A DNA stretch of 57,815 nt. Origin: Candidatus Nomurabacteria bacterium (GTDB lineage: Bacteria > Patescibacteriota > Minisyncoccia > Phycocordibacterales > UBA5272). Made by a program: the position numbers and the translations under genes. The DNA lies in the NCBI GenBank assembly GCA_040376695.1, contig JBEIQD010000004.1:1-57815 (forward strand), in the 5' to 3' direction. This document shows positions 1,038-50,962 of this stretch, piece after piece. The notes under the pieces are model-generated. The model was given only the letters and a program-made list of their open reading frames with translations. It searched no databases and was not told the DNA's origin. Within the stretch, counting starts at the first letter, position 1; every line of letters starts with the position of its first letter.

Positions 1038-1847
1038 TACCACTAGCTAATAGATATACAACCATAGTAACCCGTCACTATAACACGATAGTAATAGCAC
1101 AATAGTATACAACTATAACAACACACCACATGCACACTATACCCATATAATACTAGGTATTATAGTACTATACCATGCACAGTATACCACCATACTATAC
1201 CTATATAATGCACAGTTGTGCGGGTAAACTATACCCCTATAATGATACTACATGCACCATACAACTACATACTATACCGCTATAACAACACTTATATATA
1301 TAAGTATAATACCCGGCTTACTCATAGTGCATTACTTACTAAAAGTACCTAGATAATCTAAAGTAAATCACTTACAAAAAGTAAGCGAATAACCAAACGA
1401 AAGTCACTTACAAATGGTAAGCGAATCACATAGAATAACCTATGCACATACCTATAGCTACTTACTTTAAGTACATAGCACATCCTTATATACCTACTTA
1501 CTAATAGTGAGCAGGCTCTCTTTCATAACGTACTTACTATTAGTACACAAGGGGTATTTGCAGTAACTTACTTACTTTTAATAAGTGTCGGGTATATGAA
1601 GTTCATAATGTACTATTAGTAAGTGACTTACTTTTAGTAACCCGACGACCGGAACTTTACTATTAGTAACCTACTTACTTTAAGTAACTGCATACGATAT
1701 ACAAAAAAGTGCATACTCATAAAGATGTATATTTATGCACTGAATTATTGGATGATTATGCACAAAAGTGTATATACATATTACTTCCAACAACACCGAA
1801 ATAATAGGCAATAACTAGGAGAAAGCAAGCCACTTACTAAAAGTAAC
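924..1847. repeat. About 13 dispersed copies of the palindrome TTACT-N3-AGTAA
   Basis: Examples: 1334..1348, 1459..1474, 1494..1509, 1531..1546, 1610..1624, 1625..1641, 1655..1670, 1671..1688, 1831..1847. Two 23-mers tcacttacaaaNNgtaagcgaat at 1368..1390 and 1404..1426. Confidence 0.8.
1130..1316. repeat. Seven ACTATACC units (GGTATAGT on the minus strand), several followed by TATAAT
   Basis: cactatacccatataat, tactatacca, cagtatacca, atactatacctatataat, aactatacccctataat, tactataccgctataac, agtataatacccgg. Confidence 0.7.
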
Positions 1848-37893: not shown

Positions 37894-38447
37894 TTAACTT
37901 CTACGTTGTTGTCGTCGTTGACGTTTTTCTTCTTTTTCTTCTGCCTTGGCTTGCTCCTCCATAATGATTAGAAAGTCTTCAACAATACTTGCATCTTGTC
38001 GCATGACTTCATCGGGCAAGCATTTGAATCGGTCACAAAATGCAAACAATAAAATAGAGGGGTGAGGGTCTTTTACGCCCTTTCCCCCTCCGAGTTTTTT
38101 AGCTTGCCCCTTTAGTCTTTTTTTTGAAGTTCATCCTGTGGTTCGATGACGTCAATTGCTTTGAACAATTCATCAACAAAGTCCGGGTCAAGCAGGTTGT
38201 TAATTGTGTTCTCGTCAATCGGAAGTGGTTCTCCTGCTTCATCTTTCAAACTCCAAGACTTGATAGCCTTCAAGTTTAATAGATTGGCATAACGTTTGAA
38301 GTCGAAGTTCATCGTTCCCGATAACGGGTCGATAATCTGAGTGAGCCGGGTAATTTCATCCCGTTCACCAAAACTCAAATTCTGAACCTCGAACGTCTCT
38401 CCGTGCAATTCCACTGTCCGTAATTTACGCTTAAACAAATAACTCAT
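37894..38447 (-). CDS. tail assembly chaperone GT-like product made by -1 frameshift
   Basis: After A_AAA_AAA (38118..38124) the -1 frame stays open for about 75 codons to TAA 37894..37896, ending just before the tape measure SD. Confidence 0.6.
38112..38447 (-). CDS. tail assembly chaperone (G-like)
   Basis: 111 aa between the major tail and tape measure genes; ends ...QDELQKKD on a run of 8 A. Confidence 0.65.
   Translation of the reverse strand: MSYLFKRKLRTVELHGETFEVQNLSFGERDEITRLTQIIDPLSGTMNFDFKRYANLLNLKAIKSWSLKDEAGEPLPIDENTINNLLDPDFVDELFKAIDVIEPQDELQKKD
38118..38124 (-). promoter_or_regulatory. Slippery heptamer A_AAA_AAA for the G/GT frameshift
   Basis: 8 consecutive A on the sense strand, in phase caA AAA AAA gac taa. 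Confidence 0.6.
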
Positions 38448-38471
38448 TTTTATCATCCTTTCGATTAGTTT

Positions 38472-43738: not shown

Positions 43739-44200
43739 ATGAAGTATAATAAAAAAGAATTAGAACCTAAGTTTCGTTTATATTATTTAGACATTACAGA
43801 GAGAGTAGCATCTCTTAGTACTTGTAAAAGAGCTAATGTAGGATGTGTTATAGTCAAGGATAATAAAATCATTAGTACAGGTTATAACGGTTCAGTAAGG
43901 GGAGCAAGCCATTGTTCAGATGTAGGTTGCTTGATGGTCGATGACCACTGTATGCGCTGTCTCCATGCTGAGGTTAATGCGATTGCCTTTGCTGAGAAAG
44001 ACGATTTAAAACGGGCTACATTGTTTTGCACTCATAAACCATGCCTATCTTGTTTCAATCTCTTAGCCCAAGTCGGTATAACAGATGTAGTTTATATCAA
44101 CGACTATGGCAAGAGCGAGCCAAAGGTTGAAGAATATTATTGGCAGATTAAAAGAACCCGTGGTATCACTTTCCATAAAGGTGATACAGACTACTACTAA
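43739..44200 (+). CDS. dCMP deaminase (ComEB-like)
   Basis: Zinc motifs CLHAEVNAI and THKPCLSCFNLL. Confidence 0.85.
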   Translation: MKYNKKELEPKFRLYYLDITERVASLSTCKRANVGCVIVKDNKIISTGYNGSVRGASHCSDVGCLMVDDHCMRCLHAEVNAIAFAEKDDLKRATLFCTHKPCLSCFNLLAQVGITDVVYINDYGKSEPKVEEYYWQIKRTRGITFHKGDTDYY

Positions 44201-44203
44201 GGA

Positions 44204-44410
44204 GTGATACAGATGGATGATGATTTCTTTTATGGTGTTATAGTGAAAAGTTATCGTGTTGTTTACTACCAGTTTGATAACGGTCATTTAACAAAGATTG
44301 TACAAAGAGACGAGATGGGTTATTGGGAAGCACGGAAGTTTCTGAAATCAATTCGTAAAATCACACCGTATGATAAAGACCAGTATCAGATTGAAAAATA
44401 TTACTACTGA
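44204..44410 (+). CDS. hypothetical protein (68 aa)
   Basis: ORF with SD. Confidence 0.5.
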   Translation: MIQMDDDFFYGVIVKSYRVVYYQFDNGHLTKIVQRDEMGYWEARKFLKSIRKITPYDKDQYQIEKYYY

Positions 44411-44422
44411 GGAGGAAGCGGA

Positions 44423-44767
44423 ATGAGTAAGCAAGTTGAGATTGGATATGTTAACACGAACTATTTTGGAAAAAAGTTTCAAGAGGGTCAGATGGTATAC
44501 TGCTTCTTCCAAGACTATGACACGTTCTACCGGGTTGAAACTCTTGACGGTTGGGAATCAGATTATCTTGCTCTTGAAGAAATTACACTGGAACGTGAGC
44601 TAGCCGCTTTTAAGCCGGTTGGTAAAACGTTTATTGATTTTAATGGAACCGAGTATATCATTATGGAAGACTTAGGATTGTCAGTATATGCCGATACCGG
44701 TACGAAGATTATGCTGTTCAGCAAGTTAGAGATTATGTTCTGGAAAGAAAAAAAGAAGAAGCGTTAA
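44423..44767 (+). CDS. hypothetical protein (114 aa)
   Basis: GAGGAGG SD; its stop overlaps the converging MuF stop (TTAA). Confidence 0.55.
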   Translation: MSKQVEIGYVNTNYFGKKFQEGQMVYCFFQDYDTFYRVETLDGWESDYLALEEITLERELAAFKPVGKTFIDFNGTEYIIMEDLGLSVYADTGTKIMLFSKLEIMFWKEKKKKR

Positions 44768-45480
44768 GCCCCTTCTTCCTCTTGCGAAACTGTATTAGCG
44801 ATAATCAAGCCCTCGACTAGTACAGCAAACAGTAAGTCAATGAATCCATTGTAGTTAGGATTGAAGTCTGGTTCTGCCGGTGCTTCTTGTGACTCTGTTT
44901 CCTCGACATCTTCCTCGACTGGAATCCACAATGAACGACAATTGAAGTGAGCCGGAATCAAGTAAGGAATACGAGGGTCATCTTTCAAATAGATGTTGCC
45001 ATCTCTACTCTTACAGATTTCGGTTGTTTTATTATCTAGTACAGCGCTGTATTCTAACTTCTGTACAGTGTCATCTTGCAAGTAGTAAGCGAGAGAGCCA
45101 AGGGCGTAACCCCGTGTTGATTCGGTTCTTACAATGGTTCTAGCGTGGTTCATCGAGTAGACCTTATCGACGTATTCATTCAAGCTCTTGCCGATGTCCT
45201 GTGCTGATTTACCTTGCTGTAGCCCGTCTGCAACGATTTGTTTTACTGCGAAAGCATTTGATTCATCGTAGAACTTACTCAGCTCGAAAGCATACGTCCG
45301 TACTACACGGTCAACCTCTGCATCTACTTTAGGGTCATACTTGGCGAACAAGTCCTTGTCATAGATGTTTTTGAAGTCTTCATCAAAATCAGATGTTAAA
45401 CTATCTTTAGAGACGACTGCCCCATGCAAGATTGAACTTAGAATCATTTTTTGAATAATCTTTCCACTCTCCTTTGTCAT
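44764..45480 (-). CDS. MuF/SPP1 gp7-like minor head (head morphogenesis) protein; frame open upstream to 45669 without any start codon
   Basis: TTEICKSRDGNIY...PAHFNCRSLWIP motif of the Phage_Mu_F family. 63 additional in-frame sense codons upstream lack ATG/GTG/TTG. Confidence 0.7.
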   Translation of the reverse strand: MTKESGKIIQKMILSSILHGAVVSKDSLTSDFDEDFKNIYDKDLFAKYDPKVDAEVDRVVRTYAFELSKFYDESNAFAVKQIVADGLQQGKSAQDIGKSLNEYVDKVYSMNHARTIVRTESTRGYALGSLAYYLQDDTVQKLEYSAVLDNKTTEICKSRDGNIYLKDDPRIPYLIPAHFNCRSLWIPVEEDVEETESQEAPAEPDFNPNYNGFIDLLFAVLVEGLIIANTVSQEEEGA

Positions 45481-45647
45481 CGGGATAATAAAGTCGCTAA
45501 AGTCAATTTCTTCCTTCTCTAACAGACTAGCAATCCGTTCCTTAGTGAGCCGTACCTTTTTACCGGTGACGGCTTCACTTTGTTTAAGGAACTCATCTTC
45601 TAGTCCATCGAATACCTGTTCCGACGCTTTAGCGTATGTTGAGAAGG

Positions 45648-47129
45648 TTACAACTTTAAATCGTCGTCCTCAGCTAGATTGACAGAGCGCTCACGTTCTA
45701 CTGATGCTCGTTCATCCTTTGTCTGACCTGTACCCTTTGGTTTAGAAGGTTTGCCTACCTTTGGAGCATTAGAGCCTAATGAAGATGAACCTGTTGGTCT
45801 AGTCTGCCCACCTGTAGCACCTTCATCAGCGCCTTTAGTATAGTAGTCAGAAAGTGCTTCTGCTTGGGTAATCTCAGCTTCAACGAGTCGGTCAAGAGTG
45901 TCCTTAACTTCTTCTGATGCAGGCTCGAATCCAAGAGCTTCACGAATCCATGGTTCAGTAGGAAGCAATGCACCTGCTGTGATTTGAGAAATGATAGTGT
46001 CGTTAAGAACTTTCATGTCTTTATCAACGAGCGGGCTGAATGTGATTTTCGGATATTCGTCCGGGTTAGGGAAGTTATAGTCGATTAAGTCTCTGATGAC
46101 TTGTTCTTCTAGCATAGCTTTAATGTCTCGTTGTAAAGCGTTGAGCTTCATCATAAATACGTCCATCTGGTTACTAGACAAGGCATATGAGCCGGCAATC
46201 GCTTTACTTGATGCTACAAGCATTGAAGGAATGTTCATGCTCTCATAGATAGAGCGAGAGTGATATTCTAGTACAGCTACCCAGTCAACGTTCTGCTGTG
46301 GTTGAATCGCTGTAATGGTATCTTCACCGCTAATAGCAAGCGATGTCATAGCGTTCAGTTTGGAAAGCAGTTGCTTCATCTTACCAGTGTTCTTAGCATC
46401 TTGTACTTGTCCGATAATCAACGGCGTACCGTATCGTTCATAAGCGACGTTAGCGAACTTCAAGATTTTATCCTTGATGTACCAGTTCTTGTAACAAGCC
46501 TTTAACTCTGATTCACCGTACATATTGCCAAAGCGTTTGTTGTTGACGAACCAGATGATTTTCTGTTTCGGCATCTCAACATGATAAGCACCAATACGCT
46601 GTGTGATATGGACGACGTTACCATATGAGTCAGTCCGGATTGTTACTGTTGTCGGGTCTAACGTTTTAAACTTTTTCAGCATAATCTTACTGCCGAATTG
46701 TTTTGTCTGGCGACGTTCGTAAACTTTTTCAGTAGCGGAATAACCGTACTCTAAGCAGGTCATCATCTCCATTAGATAGTCCTCGATATTACCTTCAAGG
46801 TCGTCGAAGTTCTTTTTAATGAAATCTGCTAACTCCTTGTTACTTTCGTCGTCTACTGTGATTTGAAATCCTCGACTCAGTACTGACAGCTTTAGGACGT
46901 TCAACGCTGACTTGATTACGGCATCTTTCATCATCTTGTCATAGACGGAAAGGTCGAACTCGTCAAAGTTTAAATCGTCGTAAATGTCAATTCCATAGTC
47001 TTTGTGTGGGTCGGAATATGCCGTTAGTTCTAACGACAAGTCACGTAACTCCGCTTCAAGCGCACGTTTAGCTTGTTGCTCTGCGCTCTCAACATCTCTG
47101 TCTTTTCCGAATGGGAATTTAAAAGCCAT
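45648..47129 (-). CDS. portal protein
   Basis: 493 aa, adjacent to the MuF-like gene, acidic/charged C-terminus; size and context typical. Confidence 0.7.
   Translation of the reverse strand: MAFKFPFGKDRDVESAEQQAKRALEAELRDLSLELTAYSDPHKDYGIDIYDDLNFDEFDLSVYDKMMKDAVIKSALNVLKLSVLSRGFQITVDDESNKELADFIKKNFDDLEGNIEDYLMEMMTCLEYGYSATEKVYERRQTKQFGSKIMLKKFKTLDPTTVTIRTDSYGNVVHITQRIGAYHVEMPKQKIIWFVNNKRFGNMYGESELKACYKNWYIKDKILKFANVAYERYGTPLIIGQVQDAKNTGKMKQLLSKLNAMTSLAISGEDTITAIQPQQNVDWVAVLEYHSRSIYESMNIPSMLVASSKAIAGSYALSSNQMDVFMMKLNALQRDIKAMLEEQVIRDLIDYNFPNPDEYPKITFSPLVDKDMKVLNDTIISQITAGALLPTEPWIREALGFEPASEEVKDTLDRLVEAEITQAEALSDYYTKGADEGATGGQTRPTGSSSLGSNAPKVGKPSKPKGTGQTKDERASVERERSVNLAEDDDLKL
45654..45660 (-). 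promoter_or_regulatory. Candidate -1 slippery heptamer T_TTA_AAG at the end of the portal gene
   Basis: Sense strand gaT TTA AAG ttg taa; the -1 frame is the MuF frame. Confidence 0.5.
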
Positions 47130-47167
47130 TTACCTTGCACCTCCATGTGGTTTACATTTCTTTGGTT

Positions 47168-47230: not shown

Positions 47231-47647
47231 ATGAACGATATTCAACGGATGGTAATTGTAGAAACAATGAAAGAAGCGGAAGATAAAATCTCAGAGATTA
47301 CAGCTCTTATGCTTGAACTTGGTTTTGAAGTGTTTGACCGAGAGGAGCAAGAGGATGTTGATGTAATTCCTTATCTCGACCGGATGAAAGAGATTCATGC
47401 AAAGGGTGATGTCATTCTCGAAGACCTAGAGCAAGAAGTTATGAATATGCCGGAAGATATGCAGGAATGGGATTTTACCGGTGACAAAGAATACATCGGC
47501 TATCACGAAGGTATCTATGCACATCTTAACATCATCTTAGCGACCGTTGAAGAAGTCATTGAAACCTGTGTCATCCTCGATTACGAGACAACCCTTAAAT
47601 GGGCATATGAGAATGATATGATTGCAGATGAAGAGGAGGGCGAATAA
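47231..47647 (+). CDS. highly acidic hypothetical protein (138 aa)
   Basis: Very D/E-rich; first gene of the long plus operon. Confidence 0.55.
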   Translation: MNDIQRMVIVETMKEAEDKISEITALMLELGFEVFDREEQEDVDVIPYLDRMKEIHAKGDVILEDLEQEVMNMPEDMQEWDFTGDKEYIGYHEGIYAHLNIILATVEEVIETCVILDYETTLKWAYENDMIADEEEGE

Positions 47648-48507
47648 TGTTTACAGCAGATATGATTTGGGCAACTTACGCTCATTTAATTGATGACATC
47701 GGGGTTAGTGATGCTAACCGGGCTGTCCGGGCTAAGTGGGGTGATACCGGGGAACTGGCAACATCTCATATGTTACCGTCAGCAGGGCATCATACTTTCA
47801 ACGTAGGAGAAGGCGATTTCGGTTTGACTACAATCAAACACGTTCCTACTAAGAAAGCGATTGACGAGATTCGATGGATTTATCAAGATAAGTGTAATGA
47901 TGTTTATTTGCTCGAAGAAAAGTATGGAATTAAATGGTGGCGCTCTTGGGCTTATGCAGATGGTTCAATTGGAAAGAGCTATGGTTATCAAATCGCAAAC
48001 AAAAAGCGAGATGTACGAATTGATGGAAAATTAGTTCAGCTTGACCAGATGGACTGGCTCTTATACAAATTAAAGAACAGCCCAGACCGTCGGATGATTA
48101 TGTCAATGTTCTCACCAGAAGATGAACACAATAAAGCATTGCAAGAATGTGCTTATGAAACGATTTGGACTGTCCGGGGAGACGAGCTGAACATGATGCT
48201 CATTCAACGGTCATCAGATTACTTTGTAGCAGGAGCTATCAATCAATTCCAATACTGCTGTCTCCTAGCAATGGTAGCCCATGCAACCGGCTATAAAGTG
48301 GGTGTAATGGAATACGTTATCGCTGACTTGCATATGTATGACCGTCATCGAGAACAGGTTATGGAGATTAGTAAGCGTGAACCGAAGGAGCAACCAAAGG
48401 TCAAGTTGAAAGAGGATGCACCGAAAGACTTCTACAAAATCACTAGTGACCACTTTGAAATTGAATATGAATCCTACCCACCGGATAAAATGGATGTAGC
48501 GATTTAA
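47647..48507 (+). CDS. thyA: thymidylate synthase family protein (ThyA-like, divergent active-site loop)
   Basis: SPDRRMIMS, ALQECAYE (Cys retained, Pro/His lost), IQRSSDYFVAGAINQFQY (Asn retained), ADLHMYDRH. Confidence 0.75.
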   Translation: MFTADMIWATYAHLIDDIGVSDANRAVRAKWGDTGELATSHMLPSAGHHTFNVGEGDFGLTTIKHVPTKKAIDEIRWIYQDKCNDVYLLEEKYGIKWWRSWAYADGSIGKSYGYQIANKKRDVRIDGKLVQLDQMDWLLYKLKNSPDRRMIMSMFSPEDEHNKALQECAYETIWTVRGDELNMMLIQRSSDYFVAGAINQFQYCCLLAMVAHATGYKVGVMEYVIADLHMYDRHREQVMEISKREPKEQPKVKLKEDAPKDFYKITSDHFEIEYESYPPDKMDVAI

Positions 48508-48513
48508 GCACTT

Positions 48514-48543
48514 GCCTACCTTGGTTTTGAGGTAGGCTTTTTG
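48514..48543 (+). terminator. Rho-independent terminator after thyA
   Basis: GCCTACC-10 nt-GGTAGGC followed by TTTTTG. Confidence 0.7.
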
Positions 48544-48569
48544 TGTTACTAATATAGGAGGTGGCTAAT

Positions 48570-49304
48570 ATGTCAGAAAGAAAACCGAGACGCTATAACA
48601 AGCGTAGCGAAATTATGAAAGAGGTTACAAGTAAAATGCAGGACGATTTAGAGCGTGGTGACTTCCAAGTACAAGCGTTGAGACGAGAGGACTTAAAAGA
48701 TATTCAAACATTATATTCAGACTCACCGGAGACAGCTATCGAGCGCTACAATGAGCTTGTAGACGAGCTTGAAGATTCCCCGGTCTTTTGTGGTTATCCG
48801 ACCTTTAACGGAGAACAAATGTTATTGTGCGATAAGAAACCATGGACGAACAATCAAGGCGTTTGTAATGGTCGTTGTATGGAACATCACCGGGAAGGTC
48901 AATTGCAGTACGCCGATAAGAGTGTGGTTCACATTCGTTCGGATATGGCTAAGAGCATCTATCTCACATATCCGGCAATGCGATTTACATTACAGGAGAA
49001 AGCGCTTTATATCAGTACAATGAATTGGTTTGTACAGATGGATGAACGGGCTACACCTTTAGACATCATGGTGTTAGACCGTGGTTTGAGAGCCTTTATT
49101 AATGCTGTACGGATGGAGAGCCGGGTAGGTATGGATGCAGTACCGACGACTCGTAAAGAAGACCAAGACTTTGATATTAAGTTCTTGAAGTGCATCACTA
49201 CCCTAGGGTTAGACCGGAAGTTCCGGTTACAACAAGAAGGAAAGGAGCAAGCTGTTAAAGGGGCTACAAGCATCTTTGACATGATGATGGAGGATGATGA
49301 ATAA
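48570..49304 (+). CDS. possible small terminase subunit (244 aa)
   Basis: Basic N-terminus, ATGA overlap with the large terminase; assignment by position only. Confidence 0.35.
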   Translation: MSERKPRRYNKRSEIMKEVTSKMQDDLERGDFQVQALRREDLKDIQTLYSDSPETAIERYNELVDELEDSPVFCGYPTFNGEQMLLCDKKPWTNNQGVCNGRCMEHHREGQLQYADKSVVHIRSDMAKSIYLTYPAMRFTLQEKALYISTMNWFVQMDERATPLDIMVLDRGLRAFINAVRMESRVGMDAVPTTRKEDQDFDIKFLKCITTLGLDRKFRLQQEGKEQAVKGATSIFDMMMEDDE

Positions 49305-50962
49305 TGGACAGAAAGGAACTAGCTAAGAAGCTAAAAGACCCGTTATTTTTTACGGAGTATACCGGTACAATCAAGGGTAAGCCGTTTACATTTGCCGGAC
49401 ACGAACCGAATAAAGCGGTCTACTCTGACCGTTCACCACGGGTAATTGTAGTAGCCGGACGGCAGGTTGCAAAGAGTGAAACGTGTGTACGATTACTATT
49501 GGCTAAAGCCTTTGTAAACCCTCATTACACATTCACTTACGGCTCTCCTATCGACACGATTACAAACCGTTTCCAAGCTGACCGGTTCCGTCCTGCTATC
49601 AAAGATGGACGACATAATCTATTGGAGAACGCCGTTGAGAAAGGTCGTGACTTACTCTCTGCAACACGATTCAAAAATAATACTATCATCTACTTTACTT
49701 CTTTGTACGGAGACGGAGACAGCGCCCGGGGTATTGCCGGTGATATTGTGTTCTTTGATGAAGTACAGGATGTCAGTCAGAATGCGATTGAGAACACGAT
49801 TAAGAACACCAGTCACTCACAGGTTTATTACGAGGAGTACGAGATTCGTGGTCAATCTTATTTCTTTGGCACACCGAAGGAAGCAGGCTCGTATTACCAG
49901 ACAATGTGGATGCTGTCGGACATGAAGAAATGGTATGTCACCTGTACTAATACAGATTGCTGTGAGGAGCAGTTAGTGACGTTTAACCATATCAAACAGA
50001 TTCCAGACAAACCAGACCGCTACCGGTTCGAGTGCCACTATTGTGGAACAGAGCTAGACCGGAATAACGGACGATGGATTGCTACTAACCCGGATGCACA
50101 CCCCGGTTGGAGCGGCTATCACTACAGTCAGTTATACTTCCCTCACAACACGGCTACATCCATTATGATGGATTATCGTACAATGTCTGCTGACCGTTTC
50201 TCGAATGAGGTTTTAGGAGAGTTTTACAGTGGTTCTAAGAAGCCATTGACACGGGAAGTAATCGACCGTAACTCAGACTATACAAAGGGCATGGAGTTCC
50301 AATCAGAAGACTTCACTTACATGGGAGTTGACTGGGGTGGAGGAGTAGCGAGTAAAACTATCGTTCATATCATTCGACCAACCGATGATGACCGGTTCGA
50401 GATTATCTATGCAGAGGAAATTCGGGAACAGGACTTTGAGAAGAAGTTGCAGTACATCCTGCAATTACAACACCAGTATAGAGTCGAGAAGACCGTCGTT
50501 GACTTAGGTTACGGGGCGTATGAGAATGATTGGCTGTATAACCAGATGGGCAGTATGGTTAACGCTTGTCGTTACAGCAACTTTGAACGAGAACCTCACA
50601 AAAGGAAGCGAGACGGAAAGAATATCATCATGGTTGACCGGACGTTCATCATTGACAAGATTGTAGACTTGTTCCATAAAGAGCGCTTCATCCTACCGAG
50701 ACAGAACAAAGCAGAGTGGGAAATCTTTATCGACCATTATACAGCTATCGAAGTCGAGTACAAGGTCAGCCAATCGGGAACAGGTAAAAAGATTTACACC
50801 CATAAGACACCAGATGATTCACTACACGCTTTAACGTATGCTTACTTGGCTTGGAGAGAGTCTAGTAATACCTTCACTTATGATTTCAATGAGCGAGACA
50901 CGTTAGAAGTAGGAGACATTCTGACAGCGATGGGAGAGGACGATTTACCAAGTTGGGGCTAA
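49304..50962 (+). CDS. terL: terminase large subunit
   Basis: Walker A VVAGRQVAKSE, Walker B IVFFDEVQD; C-terminal nuclease-like region; 552 aa. Confidence 0.85.
   Translation: MDRKELAKKLKDPLFFTEYTGTIKGKPFTFAGHEPNKAVYSDRSPRVIVVAGRQVAKSETCVRLLLAKAFVNPHYTFTYGSPIDTITNRFQADRFRPAIKDGRHNLLENAVEKGRDLLSATRFKNNTIIYFTSLYGDGDSARGIAGDIVFFDEVQDVSQNAIENTIKNTSHSQVYYEEYEIRGQSYFFGTPKEAGSYYQTMWMLSDMKKWYVTCTNTDCCEEQLVTFNHIKQIPDKPDRYRFECHYCGTELDRNNGRWIATNPDAHPGWSGYHYSQLYFPHNTATSIMMDYRTMSADRFSNEVLGEFYSGSKKPLTREVIDRNSDYTKGMEFQSEDFTYMGVDWGGGVASKTIVHIIRPTDDDRFEIIYAEEIREQDFEKKLQYILQLQHQYRVEKTVVDLGYGAYENDWLYNQMGSMVNACRYSNFEREPHKRKRDGKNIIMVDRTFIIDKIVDLFHKERFILPRQNKAEWEIFIDHYTAIEVEYKVSQSGTGKKIYTHKTPDDSLHALTYAYLAWRESSNTFTYDFNERDTLEVGDILTAMGEDDLPSWG

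Follow-up and report, generated by a model that had tools for sequence, protein, structure and literature searches.

A conserved candidate −1 ribosomal frameshift site linking the portal and MuF genes of a phage head module

The DNA stretch analyzed here, positions 1 to 57,815 of contig JBEIQD010000004.1 (assembly GCA_040376695.1; hereafter "the window," meaning the entire 57,815 nucleotides [nt]), carries on its minus strand a phage portal gene and, directly downstream in the −1 frame, the coding sequence for a MuF-like minor head protein that has no canonical start codon for its first 63 codons. The portal gene ends in a slippery heptamer, T_TTA_AAG, phased so that a −1 slip leads straight into the MuF frame. 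Judging from these features and their recurrence in related phages, the two genes very probably constitute one translational unit decoded by a conserved, programmed −1 ribosomal frameshift, which would generate a portal-MuF fusion protein as a minor product alongside the normal portal subunit.

The portal-MuF junction and its conservation

Coordinates and frames were determined by direct reading of the minus strand and from the listing of open reading frames (ORFs) of the window. The portal gene (45648..47129, zero frame) encodes a 493-amino-acid (aa), 55.7-kDa protein of the Portal_Mu family (PF06074; E = 2.9e-50, 171.9 bits against a Pfam cutoff of 23.9), which is also matched by solved portal proteins with E values down to 3e-16. 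Its C-terminal ~60 residues form a low-complexity tail rich in G, S, K, E, and D. The gene is preceded by a Shine-Dalgarno (SD) sequence, GGAGGTG (47138..47144), whose duplex with the 3′ end of 16S rRNA has an energy of −13.0 kcal/mol (background for 17-mers: mean, −2.9; standard deviation, 2.5). This is the sole strong ribosome-binding site preceding a start codon in the portal-MuF unit.

The 3′ end of the portal gene reads GAG GAC GAC GAT TTA AAG TTG TAA. The heptamer T_TTA_AAG (45654..45660), the proposed site of −1 tandem slippage, is in the portal phase and is separated from the TAA stop codon (45648..45650) by a single sense codon, TTG. On the 5′ side, the limit for a productive shift is set by the TGA stop of the −1 frame (45670..45672), so that the portal and −1 frames overlap by 22 nt, with the heptamer inside the overlap. 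From 45669 the −1 frame remains open to the MuF stop (44766..44764), and the first ATG, GTG, or TTG in it is ATG 45480, 63 codons in. The part between the slip site and this codon, a trans-frame segment of 58 codons (VVTFSTYAKASEQVFDGLEDEF...DFIIP; 45481..45654), contains no canonical start, while the remainder (44764..45480) appears among the called ORFs as a 238-aa protein starting at an internal Met. In the extended 301-aa frame, the Phage_Mu_F domain (PF04233; E = 1.8e-14, 54.8 bits against a cutoff of 29.6) occupies residues 142 to 246, corresponding to approximately 44932..45246. Since a TAA codon and a −1 frame change separate the two domains, this is not a single-gene portal-MuF fusion. 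The predicted −1 product comprises 788 aa (89.0 kDa) with the junction ...AEDDDLK-VVTFSTYAK; trypsin is predicted to cleave at the junction Lys, releasing VVTFSTYAK, and a junction-spanning peptide would be, for example, DLKVVTFSTYAKASE. A preliminary description of the window, made from its letters alone, had proposed the heptamer phased on the portal frame with the slip landing in the MuF frame, the absence of ATG, GTG, and TTG for 63 codons, and a fusion of about 788 aa, and all of these points, including the coordinates of the portal, the MuF frame, the heptamer, and the stops, hold on direct reading.

Such a heptamer is not expected at this place by chance. Using the heptamer frequency of the window itself and the five in-phase slots of the overlap, the expected number is 0.0033 for X_XXA_AAG and 0.025 for any motif of the XXXYYYN type. 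In-phase heptamers are found at the end of 4 of the 81 window frames of at least 100 codons, one of the four being the candidate tail-chaperone frameshift site considered below.

A megablast search of the window against the INPHARED phage records returned no near-identical DNA, and the window thus has no close cultured relative. Two proteins 75 to 77% identical to its MuF led to contigs L004 and L005, a portal 92% identical to its own led to L106, and a metagenome scan led to L107 and L108. These five contigs, from one Logan SRA assembly and three NCBI metagenome assemblies, have an identical GATTTAAAGTTGTAACCTTCTC junction, with GAT TTA AAG TTG TAA CCT TCT C unchanged. In L004 the TGA of the −1 frame abuts TTT AAA, which reduces the productive overlap to 13 nt, filled by the heptamer.

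To cover the family, junctions from INPHARED (L001 to L011), IMG/VR (L012 to L034), Logan/JGI (L103 to L106), and a metagenome collection (L107 to L121) were all processed with one script. They comprise 31 distinct portal/MuF junctions in at least 13 clusters (12 were computed at <70% MuF identity, and the C_CCA_AAG clade was added later) and include those of the Bacillus phages Riggi, Leo2, GBK1, 019DV002, and Jayan. The order of the two genes is identical in all relatives, and MuF lies in the −1 frame relative to the Portal_Mu gene in every junction. An in-phase X_XXA_AAG heptamer, where X can be G, A, T, or C, is present at the portal end in 30 of the 31. G_GGA_AAG is the most common form (15 distinct junctions), followed by A_AAA_AAG (10), T_TTA_AAG (3), and C_CCA_AAG (2), the last in a clade (L103 to L105) whose portal is ~63% identical to that of the window; G_GGA_AAA is found in Bacillus phage DZ1 and the near-identical "Staphylococcus" phages MVC_VPHSA1/2. 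The stop codon directly follows the heptamer in 26 of the 30 slippery junctions and comes one sense codon later in the other 4, and a T is directly 3′ of the heptamer in 30/31 junctions. Whether related phages keep the heptamer and the start-less overlap had been left as a question by the preliminary description; they do so in 30 of the 31 distinct junctions. A scan of a genome contig collection gave only distant MuF-domain matches and no member of the frameshift clade.

The slip site also covaries in a manner that is informative about what is selected. The codon before the XXA of the heptamer may specify S, P, A, V, E, G, D, or L, and its third base equals X in 30/30 cases; Asp, for example, is encoded by GAT before TTA in the window clade and by GAC before CCA in L103 to L105. 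The XXX triplet read after the slip is homopolymeric throughout (GGG, AAA, TTT, or CCC), and one cluster switches heptamer altogether, with G_GGA_AAG in L027 and A_AAA_AAG in L031. Because the preceding third base tracks X across eight amino acids, selection acts on the nucleotide pattern and not on the last residues of the portal.

A number of side observations concern individual members of the family. In two clades (L010, about 1640..1710, and the equivalents in L017 and L025), the portal tail carries, just upstream of the heptamer, a C2H2-zinc-finger-like YTCxxCGxxFxNxxxLxxHxR pattern, seen in the alignment only. MVC_VPHSA1/2 show extra frame breaks in A-runs of the MuF gene, with CAAAAAGAGCC against CAAAAAAGAGCC in DZ1 (L003, 1730..1820; L011, 1550..1745; L006, 1496..1780), and the DZ1 portal is split into two coding sequences (CDS); these extra breaks are probably homopolymer sequencing errors. 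The MVC_VPHSA1/2 module is Bacillus-phage-like although the host label is Staphylococcus. Pectobacterium phage PcaP2EGY and Bacillus phage 1_ICo-2020, both from Egypt, gave equal match scores and spans and could represent one phage, or two nearly identical ones, deposited under two host labels. In GBK1-like phages (L007, 1708..3729) and the metagenomic relatives L027, L031, L034, and L111, the frameshift-linked MuF is 660 to 730 aa long, with a C-terminal ~390-residue portion devoid of Pfam matches and a predicted fusion of ~1,100 aa; these proteins may be related to the "long MuF" proteins with toxin domains.

The same two proteins also occur joined in a single frame and as separate genes. 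Six IMG/VR ORFs of 768 to 945 aa (L036, L037, L039, L043, L048, and L060) contain Portal_Mu and Phage_Mu_F in one frame, and many more-distant loci have a single open frame of 750 to 950 codons; fused portal-MuF genes have been described in the Microbacterium phage clusters EA3/EA5/EA8 and EB (PMC7302621). The 788-aa product predicted from the window aligns as one segment with the 787-aa ORF of L037 (26% identity over 768 columns, E = 5e-67), and its alignment with L036 is likewise a single segment. These single-ORF fusions and the predicted window product are thus alike in domain order (Portal_Mu, then Phage_Mu_F), in length (787 versus 788 aa), and in end-to-end alignment, but differ in that every subunit of a single-ORF fusion carries MuF whereas the stop and frame change in the window would make the fusion a minority product. 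At the other end, two outgroups with a free MuF, Pseudomonas phage Lebethron and Acinetobacter phage TRS1 (L187 and L188), have an SD sequence and an ATG right past the portal stop and no heptamer. Taken together, the outgroups, the window family, and the single-ORF loci indicate that free, frameshift-linked, and fused MuF are three states of one protein pair.

The start-less stretch and alternative explanations

If MuF is entered from the portal frame, the stretch ahead of its first start codon should be a genuine part of the protein. A tblastn search with the 301-aa extended frame against phage genomes aligned it from residue 5 onward with Bacillus phage minor head proteins (e.g., those of Leo2, Riggi, and Andromeda); in Riggi and Leo2 the match starts 30 nt upstream of the annotated MuF ATG. 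In an alignment of ten trans-frame MuFs, F6 is invariant and T5 nearly so, within a [VLI][TS]F motif a few residues past the heptamer. More generally, the −1 frame past the heptamer encodes (G/K)KVxxSE...[VLI][TS]F[GA]ERR in most clades, a motif that lies upstream of every candidate start. The first canonical starts themselves are scattered from +8 to +60 codons from the heptamer at nonhomologous positions, mostly lacking an SD sequence. Homology of the 58-aa extension to MuF N termini, a comparison that the preliminary description had put forward as informative, is thereby borne out.

The substitution pattern gives the same picture. Across six clades, variable sites in the start-less stretch number 31, 14, and 62 at the first, second, and third codon positions in the MuF frame (chi-square P = 6e-8), and the ratio of synonymous to nonsynonymous variable codons is 45:35 in that frame compared to 13:67 and 4:74 in the other two. 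Within the window clade, five codons vary in the segment running from the portal stop to the relatives' first GTG; three of these changes are synonymous when read in the MuF frame and none when read in either other frame. By homology and substitution pattern, the 58 start-less codons appear to be the true N-terminal part of MuF. The coding-type substitutions and the conserved motif upstream of all starts argue that the stretch is translated and that the only consistent entry into it is from the portal frame.

This bears directly on the possibility that MuF has an independent initiation site within the annotated ORF, namely ATG 45480 or a near-cognate ATT or CTG, with the 58 codons serving as an untranslated spacer. 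Gene callers do pick ATG 45480 here, along with varied ATG, GTG, and TTG codons in the relatives, and an SD-like AAAGGAGAG lies just 3′ of ATG 45480, with ATT codons 7 nt further on (−13.3 kcal/mol). However, the upstream codons align with MuF N termini and evolve as coding sequence, and the candidate starts of the relatives are nonhomologous. ATG 45480 itself has no SD sequence (−0.1 kcal/mol versus −13.0 for the portal ATG), and its Met falls inside a conserved IP[SM]xKE motif (P60, K63, and E64 invariant) in which other clades have Ser. The AAGGAG of the SD-like sequence is not conserved either: L004 reads ACTAAAGAAAGT where the window has AAAGGAGAG, which argues that the latter is incidental. 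Nor does the junction have the layout of a translationally coupled gene pair, as the portal stop has neither a canonical start codon within 170 nt nor an SD sequence nearby. Other candidates were rejected as well. In a scan of the 63 codons for near-cognate CTG, ATT, ATC, or ATA codons with an SD sequence, the only strong SD-like sequence (45476..45468) was located past ATG 45480 and was not conserved in L004; and a GTG found 15 codons in, in L004 and L005, was excluded as a functional start since it lacks an SD sequence and is GTA in the window. Overall, independent internal initiation seems very unlikely.

Termination at the portal stop followed by reinitiation at a noncanonical codon, such as the GTA that overlaps the stop (G-TAA), would yield free MuF with the conserved N-terminal stretch included, and would also account for the coding constraint. 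In its favor, the stop-overlapping −1 codon is GTA in 31/31 junctions, in a geometry resembling ATGA/GTGA coupling overlaps, and no stimulatory RNA structure for frameshifting was detected. Yet GTA is two positions off AUG and is not a recognized bacterial initiator, no consistently placed SD sequence is present where the coupled outgroups use an SD plus ATG, and reinitiation leaves unexplained both the X_XXA_AAG heptamer in 30/31 junctions and the tracking of X by the preceding third base across eight amino acids. We therefore consider it quite unlikely. Transcriptional slippage, in which RNA polymerase realigns on an A/T run to give mRNAs one base longer or shorter, would lead to the same fusion protein and could be envisaged for the A_AAA_AAG-type junctions, which hold a six-A run. 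The runs in T_TTA_AAG, G_GGA_AAG, and C_CCA_AAG are of only three, when eight to nine or more are usually needed, and the conserved feature is the triplet-phased XXXYYYZ and not run length, making this mechanism highly improbable. Single-ORF portal-MuF genes exist, and the MVC_VPHSA1/2 and DZ1 records show A-run frame breaks that resemble sequencing errors, so the window junction might itself be a 1-nt sequencing or assembly error in one continuous ORF, or else a mutation that shifted the frame of a gene undergoing decay. The former, a concern raised in the preliminary description, is excluded by the recurrence of the junction in five further contigs from other assemblies and by the distant clades that keep the −1 geometry with other heptamers. 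The same −1 offset and zero-frame stop in at least 13 clusters, many of them cultured phages sequenced on different platforms, together with the conservation of both stop position and heptamer, leave almost no credence for artifact or decay as a whole.

A programmed frameshift thus remains the favored interpretation, against which several observations nonetheless weigh. The lineage of L029 (2420..2460), L030, and L119 has no slippery motif but reads ACG GAG TAG, as though GGGAAAG had lost 3 nt, and its overlap contains TTG codons; L111 (1905..1925) has TCA_AAG only, i.e., the tetramer A_AAG. These cases imply that the arrangement can be lost or weakened. In Andromedavirus-type relatives, an ATG preceded by GGAG is found 21 codons in, and a free MuF may additionally be made in these phages. 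Folding of the region 3′ of the heptamer gave no significant RNA structure, with z = +0.55 for the window and values between −1.4 and +1.0 for 18 relatives, and a consensus fold of the three closest relatives had almost no covariation. Re-pairing of the P-site tRNA-Leu from UUA to UUU leaves a wobble mismatch. Finally, at the efficiencies reported for heptamers of this class in Escherichia coli (PMC4066793; see below), there would be fewer than one MuF per portal dodecamer.

Proposed mechanism, expected efficiency, and genomic context

According to the mechanism that we propose, ribosomes would initiate at the portal SD and ATG 47129, and most would terminate at TAA 45650..45648 to give the 493-aa portal subunit. 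A minority would pause on T_TTA_AAG with tRNA-Leu on TTA and tRNA-Lys on AAG, both of which would slip −1 to TTT_AAA; reading would then resume in the −1 frame (GTT GTA ACC ...), producing the 788-aa, 89-kDa fusion ...DDDLK-VVTFSTYAK. In the window clade, given the lack of a usable independent start, frameshifting would be the only source of MuF. In portal structures generally, the C terminus faces the capsid-interior side of the dodecamer. Frameshifted subunits, if they enter the portal ring as we infer, would carry MuF on the disordered C-terminal tail and place it inside the procapsid, with the slip frequency setting the number of MuF copies per portal. A precedent for such delivery is phage SPP1, whose portal protein gp6 strongly binds gp7 (MuF family) and brings a small number of gp7 copies into the procapsid (PMC6316719). 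None of the solved structures matches the MuF of the window by sequence.

A more far-reaching version, which we put forward tentatively and hold to be rather doubtful, is that the frameshift is both the only source of MuF and its route of entry into the capsid: the portal tail would act as a covalent tether, the slip rate would determine how many of the 12 subunits bear MuF, and the prohead protease would, once assembly is complete, cut the disordered portal tail and free MuF within the head so that it can exit with the DNA at infection. If this were true, the junction would be a device for building a deliberately asymmetric portal ring, which would explain the free, linked, and fused versions of the protein pair. 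The portal of phage Mu is reportedly subject to proteolytic processing.

In E. coli, no −1 motifs are more proficient than X_XX.A_AA.G sequences, of which C_CC.A_AA.G, G_GG.A_AA.G, and A_AA.A_AA.G perform best and U_UU.A_AA.G belongs to the high-efficiency class (PMC4066793); the variants found in the family all fall within that class, and the heptamer merits the highly slip-prone status assigned to it from the outset. In the same reporters, bare heptamers shift at ~0.3%, rising to ~3.7% with a favorable 3′ context (PMC4066793). As to stimulators, a GAGG lies 7 nt 5′ of the window heptamer (45668..45671), a putative upstream element with a duplex energy of only −6.0 kcal/mol, and L004 and L005 have GAGGAGG or GAGG 7 to 10 nt upstream; this element is limited to the window clade, and the A_AAA_AAG-type junctions have no counterpart of it. 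The features conserved in addition to the heptamer are the zero-frame stop 0 to 3 nt past it and the T directly 3′ of it. With no stimulatory structure or consistent upstream element, the efficiency of the shift is probably modest.

The portal-MuF unit is bracketed by plus-strand genes, at 43739..44767 and 47231..50962. A terminator-like hairpin with a U-run spans the MuF stop (44745..44783, minus strand; minimum free energy of −16.9 kcal/mol, z = −2.45, 6 of 200 shuffles as stable). It consists of 11 base pairs, some of them G-U, with the MuF stop in the loop, and a convergent plus-strand ORF (44423..44767) ends there as well, so the hairpin may be a bidirectional terminator. It was found by folding and was not reported by a consensus promoter/terminator scan of the window, which gave only background-level matches. 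On the MuF side, the plus strand encodes a dCMP deaminase (43739..44200) with two small ORFs; on the portal side, the large terminase (GpA_ATPase) and ORFs of 138 and 247 aa accompany a thymidylate synthase (47647..48507, plus strand). Portal and terminase are thus divergently transcribed, with nucleotide-metabolism genes inside the head module, an organization that L004 and L103 to L106 share.

The window contains a second frameshift candidate. A 114-aa ORF (38112..38456, minus strand) carries an in-phase A_AAA_AAA (38118..38124) one codon before its stop, past which the −1 frame continues without a stop for 77 codons until a TAA (37894..37896) situated 17 nt before the tape-measure ATG (37877). 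By its layout, the 37894..38456 region looks like a canonical tail-assembly-chaperone −1 frameshift, in which case the phage would have two frameshift sites.

Relation to known systems and significance

A close parallel is the tail chaperone gpG/gpGT of lambda and most long-tailed phages (Levin 1993; Xu, Hendrix and Duda 2004), which also relies on a simple X_XXY_YYZ heptamer near the upstream stop with no obligatory strong RNA stimulator, gives a minor, C-terminally extended protein at a fixed ratio, and is conserved in position across divergent phages. The window pair differs in consisting of portal and MuF, in the head module, and its downstream part is not a chaperone extension but a complete family that is free-standing in other phages and that, in the window clade, has no expression route of its own. 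The lambda heptamer is reportedly G_GGA_AAG, the form most often encountered in the portal-MuF family. With SPP1 gp6/gp7 the window shares the position of MuF directly after the portal gene and, in the proposed mechanism, the delivery of a few copies to the procapsid interior via the portal (PMC6316719). In SPP1, in contrast, gp7 is a separate protein with its own start that associates noncovalently with a portal of the SPP1 type, while in the window the portal is of the Portal_Mu family and the link would be covalent and set in translation. Without gp7, SPP1 virions reportedly retain only about 25% infectivity.

Slippage on tRNA-Lys at X_XXA_AAG or A_AAG is also a feature of E. coli dnaX, IS3/IS911 orfAB, and Bacillus subtilis cdd, all of which differ from the window in having defined stimulators (an upstream SD-like sequence and/or a hairpin or pseudoknot) instead of an adjacent stop and a weak GAGG only. 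In cdd the site is said to be CGA_AAG near the stop, an indication that the slip works in Bacillus. Retroviral Gag-Pol and phage T7 10A/10B follow a comparable logic, a structural subunit being fused in a minority of cases to a frameshift product that coassembles at a ratio set by translation, but they are unrelated; Gag-Pol needs strong RNA structure (pseudoknots or hairpins), and in T7 the extension carried by 10B is short.

No joined portal-MuF CDS is annotated in the deposited relatives, and when the 788-aa product was compared with 5.8 billion proteins, its close relatives were portal sized only (433 to 494 aa), again with no joined CDS. Full-text searches of the openly readable literature returned no description of a portal-to-MuF frameshift, fused genes being the only form described (PMC7302621), consistent with the preliminary description's statement that it was unaware of a previous report. 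The proposed mechanism is that of a classic bacterial −1 frameshift, while this gene pair, its product, and the biological purpose served seem not to have been described before.

With the portal-MuF junction, the structural modules of tailed phages would have a second conserved recoding site in addition to that of the tail chaperones. Many cultured Bacillus phages possess it (Andromedavirus, the 019DV002 group, GBK1, Jayan, and others), and their MuF start annotations are inconsistent and probably wrong. The junction would also supply a new class of positive examples for gene callers and for frameshift predictors trained on tail chaperones. The L029/L030/L119 lineage and L111 are possible comparison cases for MuF expression without the heptamer, and the free, frameshift-linked, and fused forms can be directly compared to study the evolution of the pair. 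For phage assembly, the arrangement gives a concrete and testable account of portal recruitment and copy-number control for an internal head protein present in few copies, and it implies that some portal rings would not consist of 12 identical chains, which bears on symmetric reconstructions by cryo-electron microscopy.

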